Source: Samistivirus egole
Taxonomy: Duplodnaviria > Heunggongvirae > Uroviricota > Caudoviricetes
Strand: one strand, 5' to 3'
Length of the DNA: 64,000 nucleotides
IMG/VR virus record: IMGVR_UViG_2974779775_000001
Location: 60,108-124,107 of that record
Shown: one piece after another, positions 28,005-47,498 of the stretch
Position numbering within the stretch: the stretch's first letter is position 1
Layout: the number at the start of each line of letters is the position of its first letter
Notes under the pieces: generated by a model
What the model was told of the DNA's origin: nothing
The model's database searches: none
The model's input: only the letters and a program-made list of their open reading frames with translations
Position numbers and translations under genes: made by a program

Positions 28005-28079
28005 GCGCCGTTGACGGGAACTGGCATACCTAGTTGACTTAGAATCAACTGCTTGGGAGTTCGACTCTCCCACGGCGTA
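28005..28079 (+). tRNA. tRNA with anticodon TAG (Leu codon CUA) but a short variable arm
   Basis: Acceptor GCGCCGT/ACGGCGT, anticodon stem AGTTGA/TCAACT with loop CTTAGAA, a 4-nt variable loop, T-arm GGGAG-TTCGACT-CTCCC, A73. Confidence 0.5.
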
Positions 28080-28106
28080 CTCCATAACTACAAAGACAAG
28101 GATGCA

Positions 28107-28208
28107 CATGGCAGCCTGCCCAAAGGGTGGTAAGCATGAATGGAAAATGTGGTCTGGAAAGTATCGTTGTCGCAAGTGTGGTGAAACAAGTAAGATACAG
28201 CCTACATA
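28107..28208 (+). CDS. small zinc-ribbon peptide
   Basis: About 33 aa: MHMAACPKGGKHEWKMWSGKYRCRKCGE... Confidence 0.3.
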
Positions 28209-28218
28209 GGTTGTTTAT

Positions 28219-28292
28219 GCGTCGGTAGCCCAATGGCAGGAGGCACCAGTCTTAGGAACTGGACAGTGTGAGTTCGAGTCTCACCCGGCGTA
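28219..28292 (+). tRNA. tRNA with anticodon TAG (Leu-like), short variable arm
   Basis: Acceptor GCGTCGG/CCGGCGT, anticodon stem CCAGT/ACTGG with loop CTTAGGA, T-arm GTGAG-TTCGAGT-CTCAC, A73. Confidence 0.5.
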
Positions 28293-28345
28293 CTTTGATG
28301 GTAAACGCGATGCCATCGAATGCACACAGGGTCGCTCCCAGTGTG

Positions 28346-28470
28346 AGGAACGTAGTTTAATGGTAAAACCGTGAAATGCGCTGTCGAAATATGCGGTGGT
28401 GCCTCATTGGAGGCTCGTCCGTGAGTAGATATCAGAGTAGCAGTTGTCGGTTCGATTCCGACCGTTCCGC
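28346..28470 (+). ncRNA. 125-nt tRNA-like RNA with a ~55-nt non-tRNA insertion
   Basis: Acceptor AGGAACG/CGTTCCG (6 bp), a canonical D-arm GTTT-AATGGTA-AAAC, and T-arm GTCGG-TTCGATT-CCGAC. The interior contains direct repeats CCGTGA and no anticodon arm. Confidence 0.4.
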
Positions 28471-28613
28471 TAGCCTGCGCTAGATGCAGGAATGTAAGTC
28501 GGCAAGGGAGTGTACAATCCCAAACCGCATTTCTCAACGGCCTTGCAAGGGGCGTCAAAGCAACAGGGTGAGAGTGTCTTGGTTGTTCCGACTCATAACT
28601 GGAACCTCCACAA

Positions 28614-28684
28614 TCCGTAGTGGTGAAATGGTATCACATGGCCTTGCCAAGGCTAAAGCGCGAGTTCGATTCTCGTCTACGGGA
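28614..28684 (+). tRNA. tRNA-Gly (anticodon GCC)
   Basis: Acceptor TCCGTAG/CTACGGG, D-arm GTGA-AATGGTA-TCAC, anticodon stem TGGCC/GGCTA with loop TTGCCAA, T-loop TTCGATT. Confidence 0.6.
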
Positions 28685-28699
28685 CTTGGGAGCTGACAT

Positions 28700-28785
28700 G
28701 GAACTGGCTGAGTCATGACCAGCACGCAATGGTGCGATAGCGGCCGATAAACCGTCAATTCTGGGTTCGAATCCCGGCAGTTCCC
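28700..28785 (+). ncRNA. 86-nt tRNA-like RNA with non-tRNA interior
   Basis: Perfect acceptor GGAACTG/CAGTTCC and T-arm CTGGG-TTCGAAT-CCCGG. The interior has a GTCATGAC palindrome and a CGCA-ATGG-TGCG hairpin, with no anticodon arm. Confidence 0.4.
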
Positions 28786-28791
28786 CCTAAT

Positions 28792-28864
28792 GCCCTGGTA
28801 GCGTAGTGGATGACGCGGGTGCCTTCTAAGCATTTATAGGCAGGTTCGATTCCTGTCCAGGGTA
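28792..28864 (+). tRNA. tRNA-Arg (anticodon TCT)
   Basis: Acceptor GCCCTGG/CCAGGGT, D-arm GCGT-AGTGGATG-ACGC, anticodon stem GGTGC/GCATT with loop CTTCTAA, T-arm GCAGG-TTCGATT-CCTGT. Confidence 0.65.
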
Positions 28865-28947
28865 CGTAATGAAAATGCTCGGTAGAAAAGTCTGGAGAGG
28901 CCAGACGTTCGAAGACTCTCCAGTCAAAAATAAAATTTGGAGGCGTC

Positions 28948-29139
28948 GTGAACGAAGAGAATGGCACCGAGAATGGAATAATGACAGAGCTGATTCTGCG
29001 AGGGATTCTTCAACTTGAAGAAGTCGAAGAGAATGGCGACATTCTTCTCTCTCTAGACTGGGATGCTCTGTACGAGTACAATCCAGATATCTACCTGTAT
29101 CTGAGAACTGCCGAACTTAACGGTCAGATGATACAATGA
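28948..29139 (+). CDS. hypothetical protein
   Basis: GTG start after RBS GGAGG. Confidence 0.4.
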   Translation: MNEENGTENGIMTELILRGILQLEEVEENGDILLSLDWDALYEYNPDIYLYLRTAELNGQMIQ

Positions 29140-29143
29140 GTTC

Positions 29144-29299
29144 ATGAAGACATACACCATTGCAGTTAGCCTTCTGTTGGCGGTGGAAGCTCCCGACCAA
29201 TCAGACGCCCTTGAAGCAGTTAAGGATACGTTTGGTGAAGGTGAAATCTGCGGAATAGATATCAAAGACGTTGAGGTTGAAGTAATTGACGAACTTTGA
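29144..29299 (+). CDS. small hypothetical protein
   Basis: 51-aa acidic ORF. Confidence 0.3.
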   Translation: MKTYTIAVSLLLAVEAPDQSDALEAVKDTFGEGEICGIDIKDVEVEVIDEL

Positions 29300-29300
29300 T

Positions 29301-29477
29301 ATGCTGTCTAACATACCTGATGTCGAGTTCTTCCTTAAGTGCACATTTTGCCCGGAAGAAGCTGACGGTGACTTGACAGTAGAGCTTGAACCTGGTATGT
29401 TTGTACCAATGCCAATCTGTGAAGATTGTCTGGTAGAACAAGCCAAGAACTTCAACATGATTGACAGTCCTCAATGA
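29301..29477 (+). CDS. small zinc-finger protein
   Basis: CxxC...CxxC. The stop codon sits inside a 9-bp inverted repeat (CAGTCCTCA/TGAGGACTG). Confidence 0.4.
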   Translation: MLSNIPDVEFFLKCTFCPEEADGDLTVELEPGMFVPMPICEDCLVEQAKNFNMIDSPQ

Positions 29478-29484
29478 GGACTGT

Positions 29485-29556
29485 GGGCGATTAGTGTTAA
29501 TGGTAGCACGTCTGTTTTGCAAGCAGATAGAGGGGGTTCGAGTCCCCCATTGTCCA
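29485..29556 (+). tRNA. tRNA-Ala (anticodon TGC)
   Basis: Acceptor GGGCGAT/ATTGTCC, D-arm GTGT-TAATGGTA-GCAC, anticodon stem TCTGT/GCAGA with loop TTTGCAA, T-arm GGGGG-TTCGAGT-CCCCC. Confidence 0.65.
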
Positions 29557-29583
29557 CAACTCCTGCGCAGGGAGGTGTTAAAT

Positions 29584-29658
29584 ATGAGAGGCGATAGTGT
29601 AATTTGGACTATCGTAGGAATCCTGCTCATCGTAGCGCTTGTGCTTTGGATTCTTTGA
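29584..29658 (+). CDS. 24-aa hydrophobic peptide
   Basis: RBS GGGAGGTG is followed by MRGDSVIWTIVGILLIVALVLWIL. Confidence 0.3.
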   Translation: MRGDSVIWTIVGILLIVALVLWIL

Positions 29659-29723
29659 TAACAAACTGGCTGGCCGATACGAACCCCATCGTATCCTCGC
29701 CCGAGGGTTAGGGACCAGCACTA

Positions 29724-29797
29724 GATTCAGTCGCAGAATTGGTACTGCAAAAGACTCTTAATCTTTGAGGATGTGGGTTCGAGTCCCACCTGAATCA
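29724..29797 (+). tRNA. tRNA-Lys (anticodon CTT)
   Basis: Acceptor GATTCAG/CTGAATC, D-arm GCAG-AATTGGTA-CTGC, anticodon stem AAAGA/TCTTT with loop CTCTTAA, T-arm GTGGG-TTCGAGT-CCCAC. Confidence 0.7.
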
Positions 29798-29854
29798 CGT
29801 TGGGTTAGGGGACGCACACCTGGCGAGGTGCCCGCCCAGCTCCACTTAAAACCC

Positions 29855-29882
29855 ACCCTATCCCTCGTGGATAGGGTTTTTT
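29855..29882 (+). terminator. rho-independent terminator
   Basis: ACCCTATCC-CTCGT-GGATAGGGT followed by TTTTTT. Confidence 0.6.
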
Positions 29883-29900
29883 CATGCTACAATAGTTTGT

Positions 29901-30452
29901 ATGACTACACCAAAGAAGTACACACCAAGGCCAGGCGACATTGGACTCACCAGAATTGGTGGTCTGACAGGCGTTCTAGTAGGTCTGGGACAATTCATCA
30001 TGCGAGATGCGAGTAGATACACTCACGTCTTTGTTGTTTTGGACAACCAGGAAGTCATAGAGGCTATGCCAGGTGGAGCAATCATCAGTCCACTGGACAA
30101 GTATGCTGGAACTACTAAGTACGGCAGTCCACTGGCAGCTTACCTAGACATCAAGTTGACGCAGGAGCAGCGAGACGCTATCGTAGAAGTAGCCCGGCAG
30201 CTAGAGGGAACGCCATACAGCTTCCTTGACTACGTGGCCCTGGCTATAGAAAGATTCGGTATCCATTGGAAGTGGGTAGAGAATAGAGTAACCTCTTCCA
30301 AGCACATGATATGCTCTCAGCTAGCTGATGAAGCCTACAAGAGAGCTGGCGTCCATCTCTTTGAAGATGGTAGACTGTCCCAGAAGGTAACCCCAGGAGA
30401 TTTGACTTATGTCGGGTTCGACCAGCGGTACGATGAAGTGTCTGGGCTGTAA
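29901..30452 (+). CDS. possible permuted papain-fold (NlpC/P60-like) hydrolase
   Basis: His (THVFVVLD) precedes Cys (HMICSQLADEAY), suggesting a permuted Cys/His hydrolase. The call is weak. Confidence 0.35.
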   Translation: MTTPKKYTPRPGDIGLTRIGGLTGVLVGLGQFIMRDASRYTHVFVVLDNQEVIEAMPGGAIISPLDKYAGTTKYGSPLAAYLDIKLTQEQRDAIVEVARQLEGTPYSFLDYVALAIERFGIHWKWVENRVTSSKHMICSQLADEAYKRAGVHLFEDGRLSQKVTPGDLTYVGFDQRYDEVSGL

Positions 30453-30633
30453 CAAAGACAAGCCCAGGAGTGATTTCGGAACGACCGGTAATGCGAGGGC
30501 CTTGTGTTCACGCTGTAGGTCTGGTAGAGTAGTACACACAAGCAAGGGCAGTGGTCGAAAGTCCAGCGATGGTAGCTGGATTGGTGACATCTTCGAAGGC
30601 ATCTTTGATGCAATCGGAGACATGCTAAAATAA
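30433..30633 (+). CDS. zinc-finger protein, paralogous to the Endo VII N-terminus
   Basis: CLGCNKDKPRSDF resembles CTGCHKDKPLSEF of the Endo VII-like gene at 53465, but it lacks the HNH catalytic part. Confidence 0.35.
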   Translation: MKCLGCNKDKPRSDFGTTGNARALCSRCRSGRVVHTSKGSGRKSSDGSWIGDIFEGIFDAIGDMLK

Positions 30634-30655
30634 GTACAACGCCCGAAAGGGCTAT

Positions 30656-30731
30656 TCCGGTGGGGCTACTATTGGCAGTAGCGACGAGCTGTTAACTCGT
30701 TTCCCTGTAGGTTCGATTCCTGCCTCCGGAG
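30656..30731 (+). tRNA. tRNA-Asn (anticodon GTT)
   Basis: D-arm GCTAC-TATTGGCA-GTAGC, anticodon stem ACGAG/CTCGT with loop CTGTTAA, T-arm GTAGG-TTCGATT-CCTGC. The acceptor has one mismatch. Confidence 0.5.
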
Positions 30732-30853
30732 CTGGAACGCCAAAGCTCGTATACAGGGCACGGATAAAGTCAAAGGGTAGCGTACGTATTCTAGATACTA
30801 TGTGCGTGAGAGTATGATACTAATCCCGGATTAACCGGCAACGTTCCACCAAC

Positions 30854-30881
30854 TTGACACTCCGACTACATCTGCTAGGAT
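30854..30881 (+). promoter_or_regulatory. SigA-type promoter
   Basis: TTGACA-N16-TAGGAT, 7 nt upstream of the ATG at 30888. Confidence 0.45.
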
Positions 30882-30887
30882 GAACAC

Positions 30888-31022
30888 ATGAACGAAGAGA
30901 GCGGCTGGCTGGTAGCTAGCGAGCCTTATTTCAGGCTTATTCACGGCAAGTTCAAGACTGAGGTCGTGATGAGCGACAATCGTCTGTGGGTCTGGTGGAA
31001 AAGTGATTCAGAATCTGAATGG
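30888..31022 (+). CDS. small hypothetical protein
   Basis: 44-aa ORF directly downstream of the promoter. Confidence 0.3.
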
Positions 31023-31067
31023 ACTCTTCGAGAGCCCAGCGAGATTGTAGTTGACGAGGAGCAGTGA

Positions 31068-31286
31068 ATGCCCTACGATGAAGACCTCGGATGCGTCCGA
31101 GAGACAAAGAAATTTCAGGTGACGCTCAAGGAAGCTGCTTGGGACAATGAGGAACACACTGGCCCTCAACCCGGTATTAAGGGTGAATGTTTCGAGCAGA
31201 GGTTCATTGATGGAGACTGGTTTTACTACATCAAGTTTCCTGGATGGCCTGGCTTCCATATTGCATACAAGCACCAAGTGAAGTAA
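31068..31286 (+). CDS. hypothetical protein
   Basis: + strand ORF. Confidence 0.4.
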   Translation: MPYDEDLGCVRETKKFQVTLKEAAWDNEEHTGPQPGIKGECFEQRFIDGDWFYYIKFPGWPGFHIAYKHQVK

Positions 31287-31492
31287 GCTTTACTCACAGC
31301 ATGTAGATTCATTCGCTTGATGGGGTTTTACGTCTTTCCCAGCCCCGGCGGCGGTGATGAAGAAGGGTTTAGCGGCCCTACTTGTACAAGAGGAAGACGT
31401 TGAGTACAATCATGCTAGAGTAAATAAGCGGATGTTGGGACCGCTTCAAGCAAGAGACACCGCTCAAAGGTGGAGTGCTGCATCCCTTCCTA

Positions 31493-31564
31493 TGGCCTAT
31501 AGCTTAACGGCAGAGCGATTGACTGTTAATCAATTAGGTGCTGGTTCGAATCCAGCTAGGTCAG
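31493..31564 (+). tRNA. tRNA-Asn (anticodon GTT), second copy
   Basis: Acceptor TGGCCTA/TAGGTCA, anticodon stem ATTGA/TCAAT with loop CTGTTAA, T-arm GCTGG-TTCGAAT-CCAGC. Confidence 0.6.
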
Positions 31565-31597
31565 CTCCAAAGCACAACCCAACAACAAAGGAAAACA

Positions 31598-32467
31598 ATG
31601 ACATATCTTGTTATTGCAGGTCTCCTCCTGCTCGTTCTGCTCGTCGCAGTCGCTTTCAGCGCCGTTACTAAGCAGAAGGGTGGATACCTCGTTGCTGTTG
31701 GTGTCGGTCTGCTGCTTGCTGTGTTTACTCTCTTCAACTCAGTAACCTCTGTTGGAGCGCGTAACGTCGGCATTCAGACGGCCTTCGGTCGATACCAGGG
31801 AAACCTTGACAATGGCCTCCAGGTCATTGCTCCTTGGTCAGAGCATGAGGACTTCTCTACTCAGGTTCAGTATCTTGACCTTGATGGTGAGAAGTGGGAT
31901 GAAGGTGCAACGGTTACCTTTGATGGTGGCGGTCGTGGTGTGGTTTACGCTACTCCTCGCTGGCGCATCAATGAGGGTATGGCTGGTGAACTGTGGAAGA
32001 AGTACAAGAACTTCGACAACGTTCGTGACCAGCTCGTTAAGTCTTCTGCCAAGGACTCATTCCGTGCAGTTCTGACGGAGTACACTCCTAACGATGCTCG
32101 TACTAAGGTTCGTGAGGTTGCTGCTAAGGTTCAGAGTGACCTGGCTTCTAGTCTCAAGGATGATGGAATCATCATTGATTCCATCAGCATCAAGGACATT
32201 AAGCTGGACGACCGTACCCAGTCTTCACTTGACAAGATTGTTCAGGCCAACAACGACATTGAGCGTTCAAAGTCTGAGCAGGAGCGAGCGAAGATTGACG
32301 CTGAGACTGCCAAGATTCGTGAGAAGACTGGTGCTCTCAAGCCCGAGGCTCTACAGCGTTACTGCCTTGAGGTTGTCAACAACTGGGACGTGAAGAAGAA
32401 CGGCAACCTGCCTGCTGGCTTCAACTGCAATGGGTCTAACGTTCCCTTCACGGTCACCAACAAGTAA
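31598..32467 (+). CDS. SPFH/Band-7 (stomatin/prohibitin-like) membrane protein
   Basis: Two N-terminal transmembrane helices, an SPFH core (VGIQTAFGRYQ...LQVIAPW) and a C-terminal coiled coil. Confidence 0.65.
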   Translation: MTYLVIAGLLLLVLLVAVAFSAVTKQKGGYLVAVGVGLLLAVFTLFNSVTSVGARNVGIQTAFGRYQGNLDNGLQVIAPWSEHEDFSTQVQYLDLDGEKWDEGATVTFDGGGRGVVYATPRWRINEGMAGELWKKYKNFDNVRDQLVKSSAKDSFRAVLTEYTPNDARTKVREVAAKVQSDLASSLKDDGIIIDSISIKDIKLDDRTQSSLDKIVQANNDIERSKSEQERAKIDAETAKIREKTGALKPEALQRYCLEVVNNWDVKKNGNLPAGFNCNGSNVPFTVTNK

Positions 32468-32509
32468 TAACGCAATCGCAGTGAGATGACTTCAATCTGC
32501 TCTCGCCTG

Positions 32510-32533
32510 CCCCTGACTTCGGTCGGGGGTTTT
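32510..32533 (+). terminator. rho-independent terminator
   Basis: CCCCTGAC-TTCG-GTCGGGGG followed by TTTT. Confidence 0.6.
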
Positions 32534-32561
32534 CGGCGTTGTAAGGCCCGGTAGCGAGGGG

Positions 32562-32590
32562 TTGACACTACTCCTTGCTTCCAGTAGAGT
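32562..32590 (+). promoter_or_regulatory. SigA-type promoter
   Basis: GGGGTTGACAC-N16-TAGAGT. Confidence 0.5.
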
Positions 32591-32649
32591 AGTAATAAGC
32601 GAACAGCACAAAAGTATGCTATCCTATTGAAACAAATAGGAGGCAAACA

Positions 32650-32814
32650 GTGAGGTTCGCTTTTGGACTTAGGCCAGGACATGTTACCAAGCATGGTACA
32701 GTAGTCGCAGCACAGAAGACCTTTGATGGTAAGCATGTGCAGTTGACACTGACTGGTAGGTCAAATAATGTAGTCATAAGCAAGTACACACTTCTACGAA
32801 CACGGAGAAAATAA
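32650..32814 (+). CDS. small basic protein
   Basis: GTG start 7 nt after RBS AGGAGG. 54 aa. Confidence 0.35.
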   Translation: MRFAFGLRPGHVTKHGTVVAAQKTFDGKHVQLTLTGRSNNVVISKYTLLRTRRK

Positions 32815-33210
32815 GTGTCTGTAAACATTGGCGATGGCGAAGAGACTGCGGCTGAGACTGAGGTAACTCAGGATGACCGTCCGATTAAGGAAATCATCAA
32901 GGACTCTGCCAAGGCTTACGCTCGTACCAAGGGTCGTCAGGCTTTCTTCTGGGCCGTCAAGAACATGAAGGCTCAGGCGAAGGATAAGGGGAAGGACCCT
33001 AAGTCTGTCAAGGTTCCTACGAAGAAGGCTTCTGCCCTTCGTGTTGGTGACCTTACTGCAAAGGGTGAGCTGAGGAACAGTCAGGTATCTCCCATCGACA
33101 AGAAGAAGATGGAACTGACATTCATCGGTGACTCTGGGGTCGTCTACGAGACGGTTGACAAGAACACCTCCTACAAGGTAGTATCTCGTAGGGACGTCAA
33201 GGAACGCTGA
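32815..33210 (+). CDS. hypothetical protein
   Basis: GTG start. The protein is lysine-rich. Confidence 0.45.
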   Translation: MSVNIGDGEETAAETEVTQDDRPIKEIIKDSAKAYARTKGRQAFFWAVKNMKAQAKDKGKDPKSVKVPTKKASALRVGDLTAKGELRNSQVSPIDKKKMELTFIGDSGVVYETVDKNTSYKVVSRRDVKER

Positions 33211-33229
33211 GCAAGGGCCTTCGGGCCAA

Positions 33230-33301
33230 GTCCCTATAGTTCAAGGGAAAGAACAAGACTCTCCTAAAGTCTAGATGCAGGTTCGAATCCTGCTGGGGAT
33301 A
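33230..33301 (+). tRNA. tRNA-Arg (anticodon CCT)
   Basis: Acceptor GTCCCTA/TGGGGAT, D-arm GTTC-AAGGGAAA-GAAC, anticodon stem AGACT/AGTCT with loop CTCCTAA, T-arm GCAGG-TTCGAAT-CCTGC. Confidence 0.65.
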
Positions 33302-33304
33302 CGG

Positions 33305-33333
33305 TTGACGCCCGGCACCGAAGGGTGTAGAGT
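33305..33333 (+). promoter_or_regulatory. SigA-type promoter between tRNAs
   Basis: TTGACG-N17-TAGAGT. Confidence 0.4.
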
Positions 33334-33348
33334 AGTCAACAGAAGCAA

Positions 33349-33423
33349 GGGAGCGTAGCTCAGTCTGGTCGGAGCAATGCACTGATAATGCATCGGTCGC
33401 TGGTTCAAATCCAGCCGTTCCTA
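33349..33423 (+). tRNA. tRNA-Ile (anticodon GAT)
   Basis: Acceptor GGGAGCG/CGTTCCT, D-arm GCTC-AGTCTGGTCG-GAGC, anticodon stem ATGCA/TGCAT with loop CTGATAA, T-arm GCTGG-TTCAAAT-CCAGC. Confidence 0.7.
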
Positions 33424-33427
33424 CTTC

Positions 33428-33499
33428 GGGGTTGTAGCATAACGGTAATGCACTTGCATGGCATGCAAGCGATTGTGGGTTCAAATCCCATCGACTCCA
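33428..33499 (+). tRNA. tRNA-Ala (anticodon GGC)
   Basis: Acceptor GGGGTTG/CGACTCC, D-arm GCAT-AACGGTA-ATGC, anticodon stem CTTGC/GCAAG with loop ATGGCAT, T-loop TTCAAAT. Confidence 0.55.
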
Positions 33500-33672
33500 C
33501 TCTTTTAATGTTTCTGCCCAGAGGGGCAAGTAAACATGCGGGTCAGTCCTAGCAGGCTGATTACGGTAGCAAGGTGATAGCCCGTATGCACCCCTTGCAA
33601 GCCACAGACTACATGTGCTAGCATGGTGGTTATTATAGCGGATGAAGGACTAGTCATCTGGAATCCGCGTTT

Positions 33673-33745
33673 GCTCCGGTAGCTCAGTTGGTAGAGCAGG
33701 TGACTCTTAATCATCAGGTCCACAGTTCAAGTCTGTGTCGGAGTA
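33673..33745 (+). tRNA. tRNA-Lys (anticodon CTT), second copy
   Basis: Acceptor GCTCCGG/TCGGAGT, D-arm GCTC-AGTTGGTA-GAGC, anticodon stem GGTGA/TCATC with loop CTCTTAA, T-arm CACAG-TTCAAGT-CTGTG. Confidence 0.65.
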
Positions 33746-33864
33746 CAAAGCATCATTGCAAGGGTGCTCAATCACATTGGGGTTCGATTCCCTCTGGTGA
33801 AACAATGTGGTGTAATCGAGAAGTACAACGATGGGTTTCCCATGCGGTTTAACTTCTCCCTTAT

Positions 33865-33939
33865 GGTCCAGTCGCACAGTCTGGTAGTGCAATTGACTTT
33901 TAATCTTTGTGGACGTGGGTTCGAATCCCACCTGGACCA
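33865..33939 (+). tRNA. tRNA, probable Lys (anticodon TTT), weak anticodon stem
   Basis: Perfect acceptor GGTCCAG/CTGGACC, D-arm GCAC-AGTCTGGTA-GTGC, loop CTTTTAA flanked by ATTGA/TCTTT (two U-U mismatches), T-arm GTGGG-TTCGAAT-CCCAC. Confidence 0.4.
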
Positions 33940-33943
33940 CTTT

Positions 33944-34016
33944 GCCCTTTTAGCTCATTGGATAGAGCGTTGGTCTTCGAAGCCAAGCGTAGGGAGTTCG
34001 ATTCTCTCAAGGGGCA
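33944..34016 (+). tRNA. tRNA-Arg (anticodon TCG)
   Basis: Acceptor GCCCTTT/AAGGGGC, D-arm GCTC-ATTGGATA-GAGC, anticodon stem TTGGT/GCCAA with loop CTTCGAA, T-arm GGGAG-TTCGATT-CTCTC. Confidence 0.65.
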
Positions 34017-34120
34017 CTTGACATAGCCAAGATGGCATGTCACACTGTTAACAGGACACAGCGGACAAGGCTTAGGCGGATGAAACAAGCCGGTGGGATG
34101 CGAGTGGCTGACCAGTCCTG

Positions 34121-35257: not shown

Positions 35258-35329
35258 GGCAGTGTGGTGAAACGGCTATCACGTTCCCCTCATAAGGGAA
35301 AATCGAAGGTTCGATTCCTTCCATTGCTA
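35258..35329 (+). tRNA. tRNA-Met (anticodon CAT), initiator-like
   Basis: Acceptor GGCAGTG/CATTGCT, D-arm GTGA-AACGGCTA-TCAC, and an anticodon stem with three G:C pairs next to the loop (TTCCC/GGGAA, loop CTCATAA), which is the hallmark of initiator tRNA. Confidence 0.6.
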
Positions 35330-35331
35330 CT

Positions 35332-35401
35332 TGCAGATTAGTGAAACGGTATCACGCTGGGCTCATAATCCAGAATTCCTGTTCGAATCAGGGTCTGCCC
35401 C
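35332..35401 (+). tRNA. second CAT-anticodon tRNA (elongator Met or Ile2), defective acceptor stem
   Basis: D-arm GTGA-AACGGTA-TCAC, anticodon stem CTGGG/TCCAG with loop CTCATAA, T-loop TTCGAAT. Only 5 of 7 acceptor pairs form. Confidence 0.4.
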
Positions 35402-36030: not shown

Positions 36031-36112
36031 GCATGAGCGGCGAAGTTGGAGAGACGCGGTGGTCTGTAAAACCATTCCTTCGGGTGAGTCAGTTCGAATC
36101 TGACCTCATGCA
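36031..36112 (+). tRNA. tRNA-Tyr (anticodon GTA), class II
   Basis: 82 nt. Perfect acceptor GCATGAG/CTCATGC, anticodon stem GTGGT/ACCAT with loop CTGTAAA, a long variable arm, T-arm GTCAG-TTCGAAT-CTGAC. Confidence 0.65.
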
Positions 36113-36168: not shown

Positions 36169-36240
36169 GCATGTAAGCCAGGGATAAGCTAGGCGGGCCT
36201 GTAAAGCCCTACCTCGATGGTTCGAATCCGTCTACATGCA
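36169..36240 (+). tRNA. tRNA with anticodon GTA (Tyr codons) but a short variable arm
   Basis: Perfect acceptor GCATGTA/TACATGC, anticodon stem GGGC/GCCC with loop CTGTAAA, T-arm GATGG-TTCGAAT-CCGTC. Only 72 nt. Confidence 0.45.
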
Positions 36241-41494: not shown

Positions 41495-41569
41495 TGTCAC
41501 GTAATTCAATCAGGCAGAATCAATGCCCTTGGCCAGGGTAGGTTAGAGGTTCAAATCCTCTCGTGACAG
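41495..41569 (+). tRNA. tRNA, anticodon GGC by eye (atypical, C37)
   Basis: Acceptor TGTCACG/CGTGACA, D-arm ATTC-AATCAGGCA-GAAT, anticodon stem TGCCC/GGGTA with loop TTGGCCA, T-arm AGAGG-TTCAAAT-CCTCT. Confidence 0.4.
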
Positions 41570-43250: not shown

Positions 43251-44351
43251 ATGAAGTTCACCAAGATTTTCTCTCAGGACTTGCTTGACCAGATGGTCAA
43301 CGAGGGCTTTGTTCGGGTGCAGACTCATCCGGTTCTCCCTCTGCGAATCCTGAACTACTCTGAGAAGGCGCAGTTCGCTGGCAAGTGGAACGCATGTACG
43401 CTTGCTTGTCGTGGCCTTGTCGTTGACGAGTTTGACAATGTCATTGCTCGTCCGTTCGAGAAGTTCTTCAACATGGGGGACTCTCACGCTGCTGACATCG
43501 ACTGGAACGCTCCGGTTGAGGTAACGGACAAGAAGGACGGCTCTATGGGCATCCTTTACTCCGTAATGCCTTACAACGACGCGATTCCGCCTTACGGATT
43601 CCAGTACGGAATTGCTACGCGAGGCTCTTTCCAGTCTGACCAGGCAATTCACGCTACAAAGCTATGGCTGGAGCGCTACAAGAACACCGCTGTCCCTCAC
43701 GACTGGACGTTCATTTTCGAGATTGTCTACCCTGACAACCGAATCGTCCTGGACTACGGAGACATGGATGACCTTATCCTTCTGGGTGCGGTCAACAAGG
43801 AGCACGGCTACGTGTATGGTCCTCGTGAGGCTGCGGCTTTGCTGGATTGGCAGGGGCCGGTAACCGAGGTGTTCGATTACAAGAACATTCACGAGGCTGT
43901 TGGTGCAGACTACCGTCCTAACGCTGAGGGTCTTGTAATTCGCTCTGGTTCTAAGATGGTCAAGCTCAAGCAGGCTGATTACGTTGAGCTTCACCGACTG
44001 ATTTCAATGCTTTCCGAGCGCTCTGTATGGAGTCAGCTCACTGAGGGCAAGACGATTCTGGAGATTTGTGAGGCTCTGCCTGACGAGTTCCACCAGTTCG
44101 TCAAGGATGTCGGTGGCAAGCTGCTCAACGACTACGAGGAGATTGAGATTAAGGTGCGTGGAATCTTCCACAACCTTCTTTCTTCAATGGACGAGGGCTT
44201 CACACGACGTGACTTCGCAATGAAGGCCAACGGTGTGGACCTATACCGTAGCCACATGTTCAACCTGCTTGACGGCAAGAGCATCGATGAGCTAATCTGG
44301 AAGCAGCTCAAGCCCGCTGCAAAGACGGAGGATGGCTACCCTGTCGGGTAG
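43251..44351 (+). CDS. ATP-dependent RNA ligase (Rnl1-like)
   Basis: Nucleotidyltransferase motif I TDKKDGSMGILY (KxDG) in a 366-aa protein, similar in size to T4 Rnl1. RBS AAGGAGG. Confidence 0.6.
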   Translation: MKFTKIFSQDLLDQMVNEGFVRVQTHPVLPLRILNYSEKAQFAGKWNACTLACRGLVVDEFDNVIARPFEKFFNMGDSHAADIDWNAPVEVTDKKDGSMGILYSVMPYNDAIPPYGFQYGIATRGSFQSDQAIHATKLWLERYKNTAVPHDWTFIFEIVYPDNRIVLDYGDMDDLILLGAVNKEHGYVYGPREAAALLDWQGPVTEVFDYKNIHEAVGADYRPNAEGLVIRSGSKMVKLKQADYVELHRLISMLSERSVWSQLTEGKTILEICEALPDEFHQFVKDVGGKLLNDYEEIEIKVRGIFHNLLSSMDEGFTRRDFAMKANGVDLYRSHMFNLLDGKSIDELIWKQLKPAAKTEDGYPVG

Positions 44352-44885: not shown

Positions 44886-45791
44886 ATGGCAACGCTTCTC
44901 ATTCTCCGGGGTGTCCCTGGATGTGGTAAGAGCACCTTCGCTCACCAGTGGCTCAAGGAGGGCGAGCGACGTGCCCGTGTAAACCGTGATGACATCCGCA
45001 TGCAGTTCTTCGGTAAGGAGACTGGTGTAGATGAGAACATGGTTACACAGATTGAGCACATGCAGGTTGACAGTCTGCTTAAGGCTGGATACTCTGTGGT
45101 GGTCGATGACACGAACATCCGTCACGCTTACATCAAGGCTTTCGTCAAGATTGCTGGTAAGCACGGTGTGCCTGTTGCAGTAAAGCAGTTTGATGTAGAC
45201 CTCAAGGTCGCCATTGGGCGCAATGCTGGTCGGGCGGCACAGGGTGGTCGTGACGTTCCTACTCCTGTCATTGAGAAGATGCACAAGTCTCTCAAGTCCA
45301 GTGGACAGTTCACGCGCAAGCTGATTGAGGAAAGCTACTGTAGCTCTCCTGTTGGCAAGCCTTACGTTCGGCCAGTGGGTAAGCGGAAGATTTACCTCTT
45401 TGACATTGATGGCACTCTTGCCAGCATGTCTGACAGGTCTCCGTTTGACTGGTCTCGCGTGGGAGAGGATGACCCTCGTAGGCAGGTCGTACTGACTGCT
45501 CAGGCACTTGCTGAGGCAGGTTACGACATTGTAGTTATGAGTGGTCGTGACTCTAGCTGCCGTGAAGAAACAATTGCTTGGCTGGAGTTCTACGATGTTC
45601 CTTTCTGTGACCTCTTCATGAGGGCAGAGGGCGACATGCGTAAGGACAACATCGTTAAGCAGGAATTGTTTGACCAGCACATCCGTGACTTCTACGATGT
45701 TGTGGCCGTCTTTGACGACCGGCAGCAGGTGGTTGACATGTGGCGTGACATGGGCGTAGACTGCTTCCAGGTTGCGCCTGGAGATTTCTGA
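44886..45791 (+). CDS. pnk: polynucleotide kinase-phosphatase (Pnkp-like)
   Basis: N-terminal P-loop kinase GVPGCGKST and C-terminal HAD phosphatase DIDGTLA, the T4 Pnkp architecture, in a 301-aa protein. Confidence 0.8.
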   Translation: MATLLILRGVPGCGKSTFAHQWLKEGERRARVNRDDIRMQFFGKETGVDENMVTQIEHMQVDSLLKAGYSVVVDDTNIRHAYIKAFVKIAGKHGVPVAVKQFDVDLKVAIGRNAGRAAQGGRDVPTPVIEKMHKSLKSSGQFTRKLIEESYCSSPVGKPYVRPVGKRKIYLFDIDGTLASMSDRSPFDWSRVGEDDPRRQVVLTAQALAEAGYDIVVMSGRDSSCREETIAWLEFYDVPFCDLFMRAEGDMRKDNIVKQELFDQHIRDFYDVVAVFDDRQQVVDMWRDMGVDCFQVAPGDF

Positions 45792-45795
45792 GATT

Positions 45796-45819
45796 GCGGG
45801 CCTCCGGGCCCGCTTTCTT
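45796..45819 (+). terminator. rho-independent terminator
   Basis: GCGGGCC-TCC-GGGCCCGC followed by TTTCTT. Confidence 0.6.
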
Positions 45820-45831
45820 GGGTAGAAGGGG

Positions 45832-45860
45832 TTGACACCCCATTACAGGCGCGATAGAGT
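45832..45860 (+). promoter_or_regulatory. SigA-type promoter
   Basis: GGGGTTGACAC-N16-TAGAGT. Confidence 0.5.
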
Positions 45861-45890
45861 AGTACCAACAACAACGACGAAGGGTCGAAA

Positions 45891-46367
45891 ATGAACAAGC
45901 GAGTTGCCACCACTGCCGTATCCGCTGCCGTTGCTGCTGGGATGGTCTTCGGACTCTCTGCCTGTGGCTCTGAGCCCAGCGATGAGTTCAAGAAGAACTG
46001 TAAGGCGGCTGGTGGTCACATCGAGCGAGAGAACGACTTCGAGTCTCTGGGAATGGCTCCCATGGCATTCAATGCTCCGAAGCCTCCTGCTCCTAAGCCT
46101 GCTGCCCCTGCGGCCAAGGCCCCTTCTGCTCCGAAGGCTCCTAAGCCTGCGGCTCCGAAGGTGGAGATTCCCAAGACGCCGAAGATTCCGAAGAACGATG
46201 CTCCGAAGTCAAACAAGACTCGGACTCCTTCTGTCACGGCTACGCCTAACAGCAATGGTCTGGCCTTCGGAACCTCCAAGAGCAAGAAGCGCAAGTCGAA
46301 GAAGCACGACGACAATGACTTCCTTTGCGTGAAGGACGGCAACGTTCTTTTCGAAGAGGATGAGTGA
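45891..46367 (+). CDS. secreted lipoprotein with Pro/Ala/Lys repeats
   Basis: Signal peptide and lipobox (FGLSACGS) followed by a PKPAAP/APKAPK repeat region. Confidence 0.6.
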   Translation: MNKRVATTAVSAAVAAGMVFGLSACGSEPSDEFKKNCKAAGGHIERENDFESLGMAPMAFNAPKPPAPKPAAPAAKAPSAPKAPKPAAPKVEIPKTPKIPKNDAPKSNKTRTPSVTATPNSNGLAFGTSKSKKRKSKKHDDNDFLCVKDGNVLFEEDE

Positions 46368-46407
46368 TTGACACAAAGAGTGCCTTGGTGATACACTAAG
46401 TGCACGA

Positions 46408-46489
46408 GCGCCTATGGTGGAATGGTAGACACACTAGACTGAGACTCTAGGCTCGAATGAGCGTCCGGGTTCGACTCCCGGTGGGTGTA
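46408..46489 (+). tRNA. tRNA-Leu (anticodon GAG), class II
   Basis: 82 nt. Acceptor GCGCCTA/TGGGTGT, anticodon stem CTAGA/TCTAG with loop CTGAGAC, variable-arm hairpin GCTC-GAAT-GAGC, T-arm CCGGG-TTCGACT-CCCGG. Confidence 0.6.
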
Positions 46490-46490
46490 C

Positions 46491-46688
46491 ATGAGAATGG
46501 GAAGCAGAGTTGAGGTCAAGTATTTCGTTGACACGAAGACGATGACTGACTATTCTGGTAAAAAAGGCCAAGCTCTTACAAAAGAGCGCGGTGGTAAGTG
46601 GGGTGTAAGAATTGACGGTCGTGAAGGCCCCAATCTCATCATCCCAGAAAAGCAGCTAAAGGAAATTCCCTGGAACGAAGGAGAATAA
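46491..46688 (+). CDS. small KOW-like protein
   Basis: + strand ORF starting inside the tRNA 3' flank. Confidence 0.4.
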   Translation: MRMGSRVEVKYFVDTKTMTDYSGKKGQALTKERGGKWGVRIDGREGPNLIIPEKQLKEIPWNEGE

Positions 46689-46919
46689 ATGCCTGACATG
46701 CCTTACATGGAACGAGTTGGACGACAATTCGCCTCTGACATGAATGAGGTTCTGACTGGCATCGACCGAATCAATGCACTTCGGGCGGTGGCTAAGCCAG
46801 CGAATCGTGAAAAGGCTGACAAGTATCTCAAGCTGTACACTGAGCAAAACCTTCCGCCAAAGACCATGGCAGAGTGGCGAGTGCTCCGAGATGGAATGAT
46901 TAAAAGGCTTCGAGGCTGA
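46689..46919 (+). CDS. hypothetical protein
   Basis: + strand ORF. Confidence 0.45.
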   Translation: MPDMPYMERVGRQFASDMNEVLTGIDRINALRAVAKPANREKADKYLKLYTEQNLPPKTMAEWRVLRDGMIKRLRG

Positions 46920-46926
46920 GGCCCCA

Positions 46927-46997
46927 ACCCGCTTAGCTCAATGGTAGAGCGCCTGCTCGACACGCAGGAGACATGAGTTCAATTCTCTTAGTGGGTA
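46927..46997 (+). tRNA. tRNA-Val (anticodon GAC), C33
   Basis: Acceptor ACCCGCT/AGTGGGT, D-arm GCTC-AATGGTA-GAGC, perfect anticodon stem CCTGC/GCAGG with loop TCGACAC, imperfect T-stem. Confidence 0.5.
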
Positions 46998-47017
46998 CTC
47001 CCGAACAAAGGAACACG

Positions 47018-47212
47018 ATGGAAAGCGCAGTAAATCTGGTAATGGCAAGCTACCAGCTTGTCTATCCTGATGCTCCATACGAGTGGCTTGAGAGGGCTGC
47101 TAACGAGACTCTTCATTGGAGTGCTCGTACTGAAAATCCTACTCTTGAGCAGATGGAGGCTCATCAGGCTCGAATTGACACGATGTGTCGGACGGGACAG
47201 TGGAATGTTTGA
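47018..47212 (+). CDS. hypothetical protein
   Basis: ATG after RBS AAGGAA. Confidence 0.4.
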   Translation: MESAVNLVMASYQLVYPDAPYEWLERAANETLHWSARTENPTLEQMEAHQARIDTMCRTGQWNV

Positions 47213-47408
47213 CAGTTCAGATGTGAAGATTGGCTTCATGGTTCTTCTGGGATTCATAAGTCTCCTACTTGCAGTTGCAGGTGGAGTCAATATGAATACC
47301 TATCTGGAGAACCAGAAGGTGAAACAGTGCATCTCAGCAGACAGGATTTGGGCTGAGGGTGCATGTGTGAATGACATCAACGACCTTCGGTATGTTGATA
47401 ACGACTGA
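47205..47408 (+). CDS. membrane-anchored small protein
   Basis: N-terminal transmembrane helix. Confidence 0.4.
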   Translation: MFDSSDVKIGFMVLLGFISLLLAVAGGVNMNTYLENQKVKQCISADRIWAEGACVNDINDLRYVDND

Positions 47409-47422
47409 TTCGTCAGTCTCAT

Positions 47423-47498
47423 GCCCGCGTAGCAGAATTAGGTATATGCTCTGGTCTCAAACACCAGGTAATTGAGGGTTCGAGTCCCTTCGTGGGTA
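47423..47498 (+). tRNA. tRNA with anticodon CAA (Leu codon UUG) but a short variable arm
   Basis: Acceptor GCCCGCG/CGTGGGT, anticodon stem CTGGT/ACCAG with loop CTCAAAC, T-arm GAGGG-TTCGAGT-CCCTT, A73. 76 nt. Confidence 0.5.

Follow-up and report, generated by a model that had tools for sequence, protein, structure and literature searches.

Short-loop tRNA genes with leucine and tyrosine anticodons in the tRNA array of Streptomyces phage EGole: probable type I leucine isoacceptors and a conserved armless tyrosine-like gene

Streptomyces coelicolor possesses a type I tRNALeu(CAA) of its own, whose variable loop measures 5 nt and which the organism's single LeuRS leucylates in vitro (Fan et al. 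2019, PMC6614811). The kcat/Km of this enzyme was 6.25 per s per µM for the type I tRNALeu(CAA), whose variable loop is ACAGC, versus 14.2 for type II, and charging of the type I substrate needed a variable loop of at least 5 nt including nucleotide 48, U8-A14 and C74, whereas the LeuRS of E. coli and of some Streptomyces (S. purpurogeneiscleroticus) did not charge it (PMC6614811). In E. coli itself the leucine elements are A15-U48, G18G19 and A20a, the long arm not being among them (PMC9976931). The S. coelicolor work treats the type I case as rare and does not mention phages, and in papers on phages that carry such genes (e.g., PMC12482277) the missing arm passes without comment. For tyrosine, the long arm is bound by bacterial TyrRS through its C-terminal domain (PMC1934993), and it is in the variable loop that the PtuAB nuclease of Septu and retron-Eco7 cleaves tRNA-Tyr (PMC13096335, PMC12673091). 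A phage tRNA-Tyr with its variable loop deleted lost the ability to neutralise retron-Eco7 in E. coli (PMC12673091), so that an armless tRNA-Tyr may be a poor substrate.

The window analysed here (64,000 nucleotides) corresponds to Streptomyces phage EGole (cluster BE, 49% GC, isolated on S. griseus), being identical to record MK494112.1 across the 11 kb compared (27000-38000). Its array holds about 45 tRNA genes and a tmRNA, and the GenBank annotation adds an RNA ligase, a polynucleotide kinase and a Ro-like protein, with no TyrRS gene annotated in the stretch examined (positions 72,000-120,000 of the EGole record). The leucine and tyrosine genes under discussion are the following:

28005..28079, + strand, type I tRNA-Leu(UAG), short variable loop, second family (ARAGORN, fold)
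28219..28292, + strand, type I tRNA-Leu(UAG), main family (ARAGORN; Rfam 55.2 bits)
36031..36112, + strand, class II tRNA-Tyr(GUA), variable arm 11-12 nt (ARAGORN; Rfam 45.8 bits)
36169..36240, + strand, short 72-nt tRNA-Tyr-like gene (low-threshold ARAGORN; Rfam 32.0 bits)
46408..46489, + strand, canonical class II tRNA-Leu(GAG) (ARAGORN cloverleaf; Rfam 52.2 bits)
47423..47498, + strand, type I tRNA-Leu(CAA) (ARAGORN; Rfam 51.2 bits)

ARAGORN coordinates take in one base past the discriminator, its calls being tRNA-Leu(tag) 28005-28080 and 28219-28293, tRNA-Leu(caa) 47423-47499, class II tRNA-Leu(gag) 46408-46490 and class II tRNA-Tyr(gta) 36031-36113. In both ARAGORN cloverleaves and free-energy folds the four short genes have variable loops of 4-5 nt and no extra arm, so the structural anomaly read from the letters in the earlier note, with 4-5-nt loops under TAG, TAG and CAA anticodons next to a class II Leu(GAG), and a class II Tyr(GTA) followed by a 72-nt GTA gene, is real, and no long arm had been overlooked there. 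The premise placed upon it, that bacterial tRNA-Leu is without known exception class II, does not hold in view of the S. coelicolor tRNA. The identity with EGole, together with conservation and compensatory changes in relatives, indicates that the short genes are real and not chance matches, and all of their acceptor ends keep A73-C74, as working tRNAs do.

Gene 28219 carries the D arm TAGCCCAATGGCAGGAGGC, the variable loop ACAGT, U8, A14, A15, G18G19, U48, A73 and C74, and its homologues are annotated as tRNA-Leu in phages of Mycobacterium, Citrobacter, Shigella and others. Pattern scans with the motif TAGCCCAAN(1-2)GGCAGGAGGC located this main family in stretches of IMG/VR (at least 119) and in the genomes of at least 120 bacterial species; homologues occur in 314 cultured-phage records, the annotated ones among the matches listed all being named tRNA-Leu. 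A type considered rare in PMC6614811 is thus spread over all these species and hundreds of phages. Among the matches listed, 114 of the 119 distinct instances fold as cloverleaves at the first parse, about 115 have a fixed 5-nt variable loop ending in AGT (U48) and 117 carry A73, with the anticodons TAG (44), CAA (41), GAG (16), TAA (10), CAG (6) and AAG (1), plus one mis-parse; the genome loci among the matches listed also have Leu anticodons only. With these loci added (222 distinct instances among the matches listed), 96% of stem positions are paired, versus 58% after shuffling, and each stem position shows 3-6 pair types. Solo genes of this family in different Micromonospora species have 4-7 kb of flanking sequence in common and are therefore native chromosomal genes. 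At positions 32 and 38, type I Leu(UAG) shows a systematic difference between phage and chromosomal copies. The mismatch between isotype model and anticodon envisaged in the earlier note did not appear in the homologue of 28219 in phage Sf14, which is 97.4% identical over all 77 nt to the short Leu gene of Moogle and has Leu as its top tRNAscan-SE isotype score (PMC12482277).

Gene 28005 represents a second family. Its D region TGACGGGAACTGGCATACCT forms a weak D stem (C11xC24), positions 26:44 are paired, the variable loop is TGCTT and the acceptor stem has G1.U72, A73 and C74; position 37 is an A instead of the G37 usual in CUN readers, and the gene is absent from the Rfam tRNA matches at gathering score. 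It is nevertheless 100% identical among EGole, Evy and Mildred21, while the matched stretch that surrounds it is just 82-85% identical. An IMG/VR pattern scan gave 13 distinct instances in a tRNA context besides the BE-cluster gene, 12 of which ARAGORN calls, all as tRNA-Leu (TAG, TAA, CAA, GAG) and with differing stems.

The third gene, 47423, combines a Leu-type D arm GCAGAATTAGGTATATGC with the variable loop GTAAT. When aligned, it matches a class II relative of 81 nt (L016) in acceptor stem and anticodon arm, and has a D arm of the same kind and nearly the same T arm as another of 86 nt (L008), the difference in length lying in the variable region only; judged from these alignments, it is clearly the class II tRNA-Leu(CAA) of this phage group minus its variable arm. 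The canonical Leu(GAG) at 46408 keeps that arm (GCTCGAATGAGC) and has G1.U72 and G3.U70 in EGole, the latter being G3-C70 in relatives. Short tRNA-Leu genes outnumber long ones in viral loci by 238 to 66, in a sample biased by motif searches.

Altogether, we consider it likely that 28005, 28219 and 47423 are true type I tRNA-Leu isoacceptors, charged by the host LeuRS and reading CUA and UUG as leucine. Cloverleaf shape, conservation and covariation, the exclusive tie of the two family D-arm motifs to Leu anticodons among the matches listed and, for 47423, homology to class II tRNAs emerged from the present analysis, and all three genes carry the variable loop of at least 5 nt with nucleotide 48, the U8-A14 and the C74 that the S. 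coelicolor LeuRS needs. Charging of type I tRNALeu by a Streptomyces LeuRS comes from the literature; that the three phage tRNAs are charged in S. griseus as well is what we infer. Once processed and completed with CCA, they would be charged by the host LeuRS and would then decode CUA and UUG as leucine. Such codons are probably far commoner in this 49%-GC phage than in its high-GC host, and the short genes would supply their readers: in the phage ORFs, 15% of the leucine codons are CTA and 11% are TTG, versus about 2% for CTA in actinomycete proxy loci, which fits the anticodons supplied. The three genes would represent three lineages, 28219 coming from a large family common to many phages and actinomycete chromosomes, 28005 from a second, phage-borne family, and 47423 being derived, by loss of the arm, from a class II tRNA-Leu(CAA) of this phage group. 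With type I tRNALeu already known in the host genus and charged normally there, the short leucine genes of the phage appear ordinary.

The short tyrosine gene is a different case. Gene 36169 is not called by ARAGORN at the default threshold and is called once the threshold is lowered, its 32.0 bits lie above the Rfam tRNA gathering score (29 bits), and GenBank annotates it as tRNA-Tyr. It has the anticodon loop CTGTAAA, G1-C72, A73, C74 and a 5-nt variable loop, and ends 2 nt before a tRNA-His, its C74 abutting the G-1 of the latter. The core is irregular and invariant, with the mismatches C11xA24 and C27xU43, and covariation bears on the fold outside it: across 8 variants, 9 pairs have changed on both sides and 90.5% of the cells are paired, a value reached by 0 of 500 shuffles. 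The gene was found in 15 IMG/VR stretches and in 88 phage records, all from Streptomyces and from BE-cluster phages only, almost always accompanied by a normal class II tRNA-Tyr and usually just downstream of it. Scores from the D arm by itself did not single out any isotype. From its sequence, 36169 is a conserved tRNA-shaped gene of BE-cluster Streptomyces phages with G1-C72, A73 and G34-U35-A36, the marks of tyrosine tRNAs in bacteria, and without the arm, and our best guess is that it represents a second tRNA-Tyr, matured like its neighbours. TyrRS may charge such a tRNA less efficiently, yet the tRNA would offer no variable-arm target to tRNA-Tyr nucleases, and escape from nucleases that cut this arm is a testable idea.

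The duplicated anticodons reported in the earlier note (Asn GTT, Lys CTT, CAT and Asp GTC, each twice) were also recovered with ARAGORN:

21485..21560, + strand, tRNA-Asp(GUC) copy 1, outside the range 28005-47498 (ARAGORN)
21925..21995, + strand, tRNA-Asp(GUC) copy 2, C1-G72, A73 (ARAGORN)
29724..29797, + strand, tRNA-Lys(CUU) copy 1 (ARAGORN)
30656..30731, + strand, tRNA-Asn(GUU) copy 1, atypical (ARAGORN; not in the Rfam matches at gathering score)
31493..31564, + strand, tRNA-Asn(GUU) copy 2, G3.U70 (ARAGORN; Rfam 69.4 bits)
33673..33745, + strand, tRNA-Lys(CUU) copy 2, 43/74 positions the same as in copy 1 (ARAGORN)
35258..35329, + strand, CAT-anticodon tRNA copy 1 (ARAGORN)
35331..35401, + strand, CAT-anticodon tRNA copy 2, immediately next to copy 1, top of the acceptor stem mismatched as called (ARAGORN)

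Pro TGG, Leu TAG, Tyr GTA and Ala GGC are likewise present twice. The copies of each pair have just 55-68% of positions in common and are thus divergent genes rather than recent duplications: old pairs that have drifted apart, as is typical where a phage has assembled its tRNA array as a mosaic. As a separate observation, identity mark and anticodon clash in some genes of the array: Leu(GAG) 46408 and Asn 31493 both carry G3.U70, which the 'Ala' gene at 41495 lacks.

Other explanations can be weighed against these data. The short genes could be charged with another amino acid, so that the phage rereads CUA, UUG or UAC; their shape does depart from textbook class II, and the clashes just mentioned could be taken in the same sense. 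Both D-arm families are however tied, among the matches listed, to Leu anticodons only, covering all six, which is the pattern predicted by an identity defined by LeuRS. Moreover, the other anticodon-blind enzymes, AlaRS and SerRS, are excluded for 28005, 28219 and 47423, which have neither the G3:U70 alanine mark nor the long SerRS arm, and the Leu isotype score in Sf14, the native chromosomal copies in conserved synteny and the leucylation of type I tRNALeu by a Streptomyces LeuRS all speak against a switch. For tyrosine, the closest core matches of 36169 among 2,698 tRNAs are phage tRNA-Cys(GCA), with an anticodon loop differing by one base. CysRS requires U73 and GCA, and the A73 and GUA of 36169 suit TyrRS rather than CysRS. 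We therefore hold a switch of identity to be very improbable. No more credible are class II tRNAs decaying as pseudogenes after deletion of the arm, even if the kinship of 47423 with class II tRNAs that keep it is clear, the D stem of 28005 is weak and its Rfam score low, and the short Tyr gene has two invariant mismatches. The conservation of 28005 amid diverged surroundings, the numerous compensated pair changes seen in the two Leu families as well as in the short Tyr gene, and the (biased) excess of short over long tRNA-Leu genes in viral loci are at odds with loss of function.

A role as decoys or sponges, unused in translation and binding or saturating tRNA-targeting nucleases or other tRNA-binding defence proteins so as to shield the real tRNAs, is unlikely, although such a role, or evasion of nucleases, may apply to the short Tyr gene. 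The RNA ligase, polynucleotide kinase, Ro-like protein and tmRNA of the phage indicate that RNA damage matters to it, the differences from chromosomal Leu(UAG) at positions 32 and 38 resemble those of nuclease-evading phage tRNAs (PMC10264068), overexpressed tRNA-Tyr neutralises PtuAB toxicity (PMC13096335, PMC12673091), and the pairing of the short Tyr gene with a normal one would suit a sponge. On the other hand, the leucine anticodons match codon use, tRNAs of this kind are native to cells and proven to be charged, and the A73-C74 ends are those of working tRNAs. As to tyrosine, PtuAB cuts the very arm that is absent here and the loop-deleted phage tRNA-Tyr lost its anti-retron effect, so an armless decoy would have to act on some other nuclease. 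For the three leucine genes, the identity switch, decoy and recoding roles proposed in the earlier note thus find no support, each of the two conserved D-arm motifs going with Leu anticodons only in the hundreds of sequences listed and none of the three genes having G3:U70 or a long arm.

Compared with the type I tRNALeu(CAA) of S. coelicolor (PMC6614811), the phage genes share the Leu anticodon, the 5-nt variable loop (ACAGC there; ACAGT, TGCTT and GTAAT here), U8-A14, nucleotide 48, A73-C74, the presence of class II tRNALeu alongside them in one cell and the host genus. They differ in being phage-encoded instead of chromosomal, in including the UAG anticodon, whose isoacceptor in S. coelicolor is class II, and in having U48 rather than C48, with G1.U72 in many copies; 28005 has in addition a different, weaker D arm. 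Direct homologues of 28219 (~80-87% over 68-70 nt) occur as short tRNA-Leu genes in Bxz1-like mycobacteriophages (cluster C1) and in enterobacterial phages of the Felix O1/Moogle type (e.g., Sf14, PMC12482277), with the same D arm and variable loop and all annotated as tRNA-Leu. Their hosts differ, and for the enterobacterial ones the LeuRS of E. coli reportedly leaves the type I substrate from Streptomyces uncharged. The phage tRNA-Tyr genes that counteract retron-Eco7 and Septu PtuAB (Azam 2024, PMC11555353; PMC12673091; PMC13096335) resemble 36169 as extra phage tRNA-Tyr in which the variable region, the PtuAB cut site, makes the difference from the host; they keep a long or even longer arm, whose deletion abolishes the effect, whereas the EGole gene is armless. 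Tyr or Leu anticodons without a long arm are likewise found in the archaeal/eukaryal-type class I tRNA-Tyr, including that of CPR bacteria (PMC5370408), and in animal mitochondrial tRNA-Tyr and tRNA-Leu, but the archaeal-type tRNA-Tyr has C1-G72 and occurs in CPR with an archaeal-type TyrRS (PMC5370408), whereas the phage gene bears the bacterial G1-C72.

Positions 27000-38000 of the window are 100% identical to Streptomyces phage EGole (MK494112.1), of cluster BE and genus Samistivirus, and window coordinates are obtained by subtracting 60107 from those of the record. ARAGORN called 42 tRNA genes and a tmRNA in the window, all on the + strand, and Rfam recovered 34 tRNAs and the tmRNA at the gathering score; three additional tRNAs are annotated in GenBank. 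Small ORFs, a nucleotidyltransferase and several RNA-related genes are scattered through the tRNA array, the following among them:

23263-24915, Ro-like RNA-binding protein
38496-38764, + strand, tmRNA (tag ANSKFAFALAA)
43251-44351, RNA ligase
44886-45791, polynucleotide kinase

These four form an RNA repair and quality-control set, and no Y RNA was found in the window at the Rfam gathering score. Position 74 is C after all 45 tRNA calls (12973-58252) and CCA follows none of them; a phage nucleotidyltransferase CDS (14623-15144) sits inside this array and suggests that CCA ends are completed or repaired. The sole tRNA-like gene of the window with an encoded CCA end is an annotated tRNA-Gly(TCC) (14379-14455), called by neither ARAGORN nor Rfam, whose fold includes a long, GC-rich hairpin at its centre. 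In 13 of the 45 EGole tRNAs the acceptor stem begins with a G1.U72 wobble, in every case together with A73 (for instance at 17373, 27012, 27340, 27674, 28005, 28219, 33230, 35258, 46408 and 47423). The alanine-identity mark G3.U70 occurs misplaced in the class II Leu(GAG) (46408-46489), where relatives have G3-C70, and in Asn(GTT) (31493-31564); the annotated tRNA-Ala(GGC) (41495-41569) has T3-A70, G73 and a poor cloverleaf. The earlier note had listed duplicated anticodons (Asn GTT, Lys CTT, CAT and Asp GTC, each twice), and ARAGORN found all of them. The members of each pair are alike at only 55-68% of positions, so they are divergent genes rather than fresh duplications.

Among the ARAGORN calls are two Leu(tag) genes at 28005 and 28219, Leu(caa) at 47423, a class II Leu(gag) at 46408 and a class II Tyr(gta) at 36031. 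The first three had been noticed for their short variable loops, and they are real: in ARAGORN cloverleaves and unconstrained energy folds each of them has four arms, with 5 nt in the variable region (TGCTT in 28005, with 26:44 paired, ACAGT in 28219 and GTAAT in 47423). The long stem-forming variable arm of more than 10 nt is present in 46408 and absent from all three. What made these genes look anomalous was the premise that every bacterial tRNA-Leu is class II, which is false, as shown by the type I tRNALeu of S. coelicolor (PMC6614811). This bacterium has five tRNALeu isoacceptors, and the CAA one belongs to type I, its variable loop reading A44-C45-A46-G47-C48 (Fan et al. 2019, PMC6614811). 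A single leucyl-tRNA synthetase, ScoLeuRS, charges both types, with a kcat/Km of 6.25 (type I) versus 14.2 (type II) per s per µM; its minimum is a five-nt variable loop including nt 48, and U8-A14 and C74 are important, C74 being essential for Streptomyces LeuRS, while A73 is not (PMC6614811). In E. coli, leucine identity resides in A73, A15-U48, G18G19 and A20a, and neither in the anticodon nor in the long arm (PMC9976931). Altogether, the charging data from S. coelicolor and the E. coli determinants make a class-I-shaped tRNA-Leu a documented, chargeable species in the host genus.

The phage genes carry the corresponding features. Genes 28219 and 47423 have T8 and A14, as does 28005 with one extra D-loop base, and all three end in A73 followed by C. 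The alanine-type G3:U70 is absent, the 3:70 pair being G-C in two of the short Leu genes, C-G in the third and A-T in the short Tyr gene at 36169. A Leu-type D arm (3-bp stem, 13:22 unpaired, A14 A15 .. G18 G19 .. A20a) occurs in 47423, where it reads GCA G AATTAGGTAT A TGC and aligns with the class II Leu(GAG) and class II relatives, and in 28219 (GCC C AATGGCAGG A GGC). Judged from these sequence features, the leucine part of the observation is in all likelihood explained by known biology, the short Leu genes joining the documented type I tRNA-Leu. Such a result removes a false alarm, as type I tRNA-Leu is documented in the host genus.

Gene 28219 belongs to a large family. In a BLAST search for distant matches it aligned without gaps to Mycobacterium cluster C1 phage genes annotated as tRNA-Leu (87% over ~70 nt) and to tRNA-Leu of Citrobacter and Shigella Felix O1-like phages (~80%). 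The Leu genes of phage Drazdys measure 76 (cag), 75 (gag) and 74 nt (caa), and the tag, caa and taa genes of Moogle 77-79 nt including CCA, the Tyr and Ser genes of Moogle being long. Felix O1 / Moogle-like enterobacterial phages carry three type I tRNA-Leu genes (Citrobacter phage Moogle, L003 5994-7065; Sf14, NC_042075.1 16492-16568); the Moogle feature table places its tRNAs on the opposite strand to the ARAGORN calls. The shared D arm, TAGCCCAAN(1-2)GGCAGGAGGC, was found in at least 119 IMG/VR stretches and in the genomes of at least 120 GTDB species. A first parse of 119 distinct instances gave 114 cloverleaves with a fixed 5-nt loop; the variable loop ended in AGT in ~115, A73 was present in 117 and G3.U70 in none. 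Their anticodons were TAG (44), CAA (41), GAG (16), TAA (10), CAG (6) and AAG (1), that is, all six leucine anticodons and, one mis-parse aside, no other. Similarly, 78 of 80 genome loci carry a family gene, with Leu anticodons only. Over 222 distinct instances, the 17 stem positions were 96% paired (58% in shuffled controls), and each position showed three to six pair types.

An identity defined by LeuRS predicts such a motif, located outside the anticodon yet linked only to leucine anticodons. Decoys for tRNA-targeting nucleases and switched identities, both put forward in the earlier note, are for the leucine genes hard to reconcile with such a D arm. Agreement between isotype model and anticodon, which that note had named as evidence against its own reading, was found in the published scores of a homologue in phage Sf14, where Leu is the top tRNAscan-SE 2.0 isotype model for Leu_TAG, Leu_CAA and Leu_TAA (PMC12482277); Sf14 Leu(TAG) is 97.4% identical to the short Moogle gene over all 77 nt.

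In the genome loci, the short Leu gene was the sole tRNA within 8 kb in 50 of 80 cases, and inside arrays of 10-30 tRNAs in the remaining 8-kb loci. The solo genes are nearly all Leu(UAG) and from Actinomycetota (Micromonospora, Actinoplanes, Streptosporangiaceae, Pseudonocardia and Streptomyces sp. YU58), and examples such as those of Streptomyces sp. YU58 (L199) and Micromonospora have the D arm, V loop and T arm in common with 28219. Loci of different Micromonospora species share flanks of 4-7 kb, so these type I Leu genes are chromosomal and vertically inherited. Such conserved synteny around a solo type I tRNA-Leu(UAG) is seen in many Actinomycetota (L188, L199, L222 and L229, for example, among the bacterial loci L175-L254). 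A 2023 review of tRNA identity gives tRNA-Leu a long arm everywhere but in animal mitochondria (PMC9976931), the Streptomyces paper regards type I tRNALeu as rare (PMC6614811), and the literature searched (phage tRNA, variable arm, class I) gave no account of an arm-less phage tRNA-Leu. The phage context and the breadth of this family seem to have been little noted. Type I tRNA-Leu is no Streptomyces curiosity: one Leu-only family defined by its D arm and V loop extends over at least 120 bacterial species, many with a native solo actinomycete Leu(UAG), and over hundreds of phages, including those of enterobacteria and Firmicutes. This breadth raises the question of charging in E. coli-like hosts, as E. 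coli LeuRS, together with one Streptomyces LeuRS, reportedly leaves the Streptomyces type I substrate uncharged (PMC6614811).

A different history is suggested for 47423. In BE-cluster relatives from IMG/VR, Leu(caa) measures 86 nt (L008), 81 nt (L016) or 75-77 nt (elsewhere). The 81-nt gene has the same acceptor stem and anticodon arm as that of EGole, with an additional GCCGAAAGGC arm; the 86-nt gene is almost identical to it in the T arm and resembles it closely in the D arm. In the alignment of EGole with its relatives (A2), length differs only in the variable region, and 47423 is a class II gene minus its arm. Leu(gag) is in turn 76 nt long in L008 and 83-86 nt elsewhere in the cluster, and five relatives (L012-L015 and L018) have a class II gene of 82 nt as their second Leu(tag). 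From this mixture of long and short Leu(caa), Leu(gag) and Leu(tag) genes it follows that BE-cluster phages have lost the arm more than once, which would agree with a host LeuRS that can do without it.

The third gene, 28005, represents a second family, searched in viral contigs only (IMG/VR). EGole, Evy and Mildred21 carry 100% identical copies of it within a matched stretch of only 82-85% identity. The CAA version found in a Microbacterium phage shares the D region and T arm of 28005, but its anticodon stem is fully different and still complementary. A scan of IMG/VR with ACGGGAACNGGCATACC returned 13 distinct instances in tRNA context besides the BE-cluster gene, three of them in tandem on a 436-kb contig; ARAGORN called 12 of the 13, all as tRNA-Leu (TAG, TAA, CAA and GAG), and their acceptor, anticodon and T stems differ. 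The D stem of 28005 is weak (A10-T25, C11xC24, G12-C23) and position 37 is A. Of the three short Leu genes it departs furthest from the canonical form, yet it is under clear constraint.

Codon usage in the phage gives these genes an ordinary task. The window has a GC content of 49%, and among the leucine codons of its + strand ORFs (100 codons or longer) CTA accounts for 15.0%, TTG for 11.1% and TTA for 0.4%. Streptomyces genomes are high in GC, and the ORFs of two 8-kb actinomycete loci, a rough approximation of the host, showed CTA at ~2% and TTG at 2-7%. Phage demand is matched by two Leu(UAG), one Leu(CAA) and one Leu(GAG), and the Leu genes would be ordinary decoders of host-rare codons. 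The Leu(UAG) anticodon loops of 28219 and 28005 were also compared with those of loci L175-L254, that is, with chromosomal copies of the family: U32/G37/U38 is found in 43 of 62 chromosomal copies, whereas C32 or A38 occurs in 41 of 42 viral ones, EGole having C32/A38. This shift has the same direction as that reported for Sf14 tRNAs relative to the host. In the type I Leu family, G1.U72 occurs in 64/114 viral versus 23/96 genomic copies.

Other elements around the Leu genes were recorded. The tRNA-Leu(UUA) annotated in GenBank (15158-15234, 77 nt), with a 100% identical and unannotated copy in Paradiddles, was considered as a fourth type I Leu and dropped, since its Rfam alignment (30.8 bits) describes a tRNA-like element that nearly lacks a D arm and has a different loop, CUGAUAA, and an insertion of 18 nt; TTA codons number 4/12,865 in the phage ORFs. 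Between both Leu(TAG) genes lies an unannotated 35-codon ORF (28102-28209, MHMAACPKGGKHEWKMWSGKYRCRKCGETSKIQPT), whose product shows a zinc-ribbon-like CxxG...CxxC pattern; the annotations of Pepperwood and Larnav list it as a hypothetical protein. Low-threshold ARAGORN calls at 27856-27933 (His atg) and 28385-28470 (undetermined) flank the Leu(TAG) pair where no feature is annotated, and a third (44181-44276, a 96-nt Leu caa) sits within the RNA ligase CDS (43251-44351); all three may be remnants of decayed tRNA genes or fortuitous hits.

Within the finding, what merits an experiment is the short Tyr gene. That a 72-nt gene with anticodon GTA follows the class II Tyr gene was borne out: 36169 was found at a lowered ARAGORN threshold, scores 32.0 bits with the Rfam tRNA model (gathering score 29) and is annotated as tRNA-Tyr in GenBank. 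Its V loop has 5 nt (ACCTC or ACCTT) and the long arm is absent. Only 15 IMG/VR stretches contain the exact core AGCCAGGGANAAGCTAGGC, and the gene is present in 88 GenBank phage records, all of Streptomyces BE-cluster phages and often unannotated. Its eight distinct variants include four versions of the acceptor stem, four of the T stem and two of the anticodon stem, complementary throughout. On the canonical cloverleaf, both sides have changed in 9 of 21 pairs, and 90.5% of the cells are paired; of 500 shuffles, one reached nine doubly changed pairs and none attained the percentage paired or the covariation score, and slid controls were 26-49% paired. G1-C72, A73, the loop CTGTAAA (with the G34 U35 A36 anticodon), the core and the mismatches C11xA24 and C27xU43 are invariant in all eight. 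An alternative fold with a long extended anticodon stem involves invariant columns, which give no covariation signal either way. Six of the eight variants have a class II tRNA-Tyr within 150 nt upstream. In EGole, A73-C74 is directly followed by G-1 of tRNA-His, a tight spacing that fits maturation of the short Tyr as a tRNA.

Among 2,698 compared tRNAs, no gene of 79 nt or less had a Tyr anticodon apart from those of the BE cluster, of which default ARAGORN called just one. The best core matches of the short Tyr in this set were phage tRNA-Cys(GCA), and scoring of the D arm alone against the same set gave no isotype specificity, so a Cys-to-Tyr anticodon shift as its possible origin stays a weak lead. 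A serine anticodon on a short tRNA is also annotated in Paradiddles, a 70-nt tRNA-Ser(tga) (L004 10766-10835) for which EGole has no counterpart at that position; SerRS normally requires the long arm.

Bacterial TyrRS binds the long arm of tRNA-Tyr through its C-terminal domain (PMC1934993), and the remaining known tRNA-Tyr determinants are A73, U35 and G1-C72 (PMC9976931). In this regard, PtuAB of retron-Eco7 and Septu cleaves tRNA-Tyr in the variable loop and is countered by phage tRNA-Tyr genes (PMC13096335, PMC12673091), but a phage tRNA-Tyr with its V loop deleted lost this counteracting activity in E. coli (PMC12673091). A speculative reading, to which we give a rather low probability, is that 36169 is a natural arm-less bacterial-type tRNA-Tyr, kept by BE-cluster Streptomyces phages beside the normal one because it still serves translation, or titrates a defence protein, and offers no variable-arm target to PtuAB/Septu-like nucleases. 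If true, this would be a structural immune-escape route not yet described, and Streptomyces TyrRS would be able to charge a class-I-shaped tRNA. For current research on tRNA-Tyr-targeting defence nucleases, the conserved arm-less tRNA-Tyr is a specific gene that can be put to the test.

Compared with the type I tRNALeu of Fan et al., the phage Leu genes share all the features recognizable at the sequence level. They differ from class II tRNA-Leu in lacking its defining long arm, although 47423 and 28219 retain the Leu-type D arm. In the nuclease-evading phage tRNAs of van den Berg et al. (2023), the differences from the host cognate lie in the anticodon loop, outside the anticodon. As for the short Tyr, it has three of the four marks of a bacterial tRNA-Tyr and is without the arm. 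Nor does it belong to the class I tRNA-Tyr of archaeal/eukaryal type, which requires C1-G72, since all eight phage variants have G1-C72.
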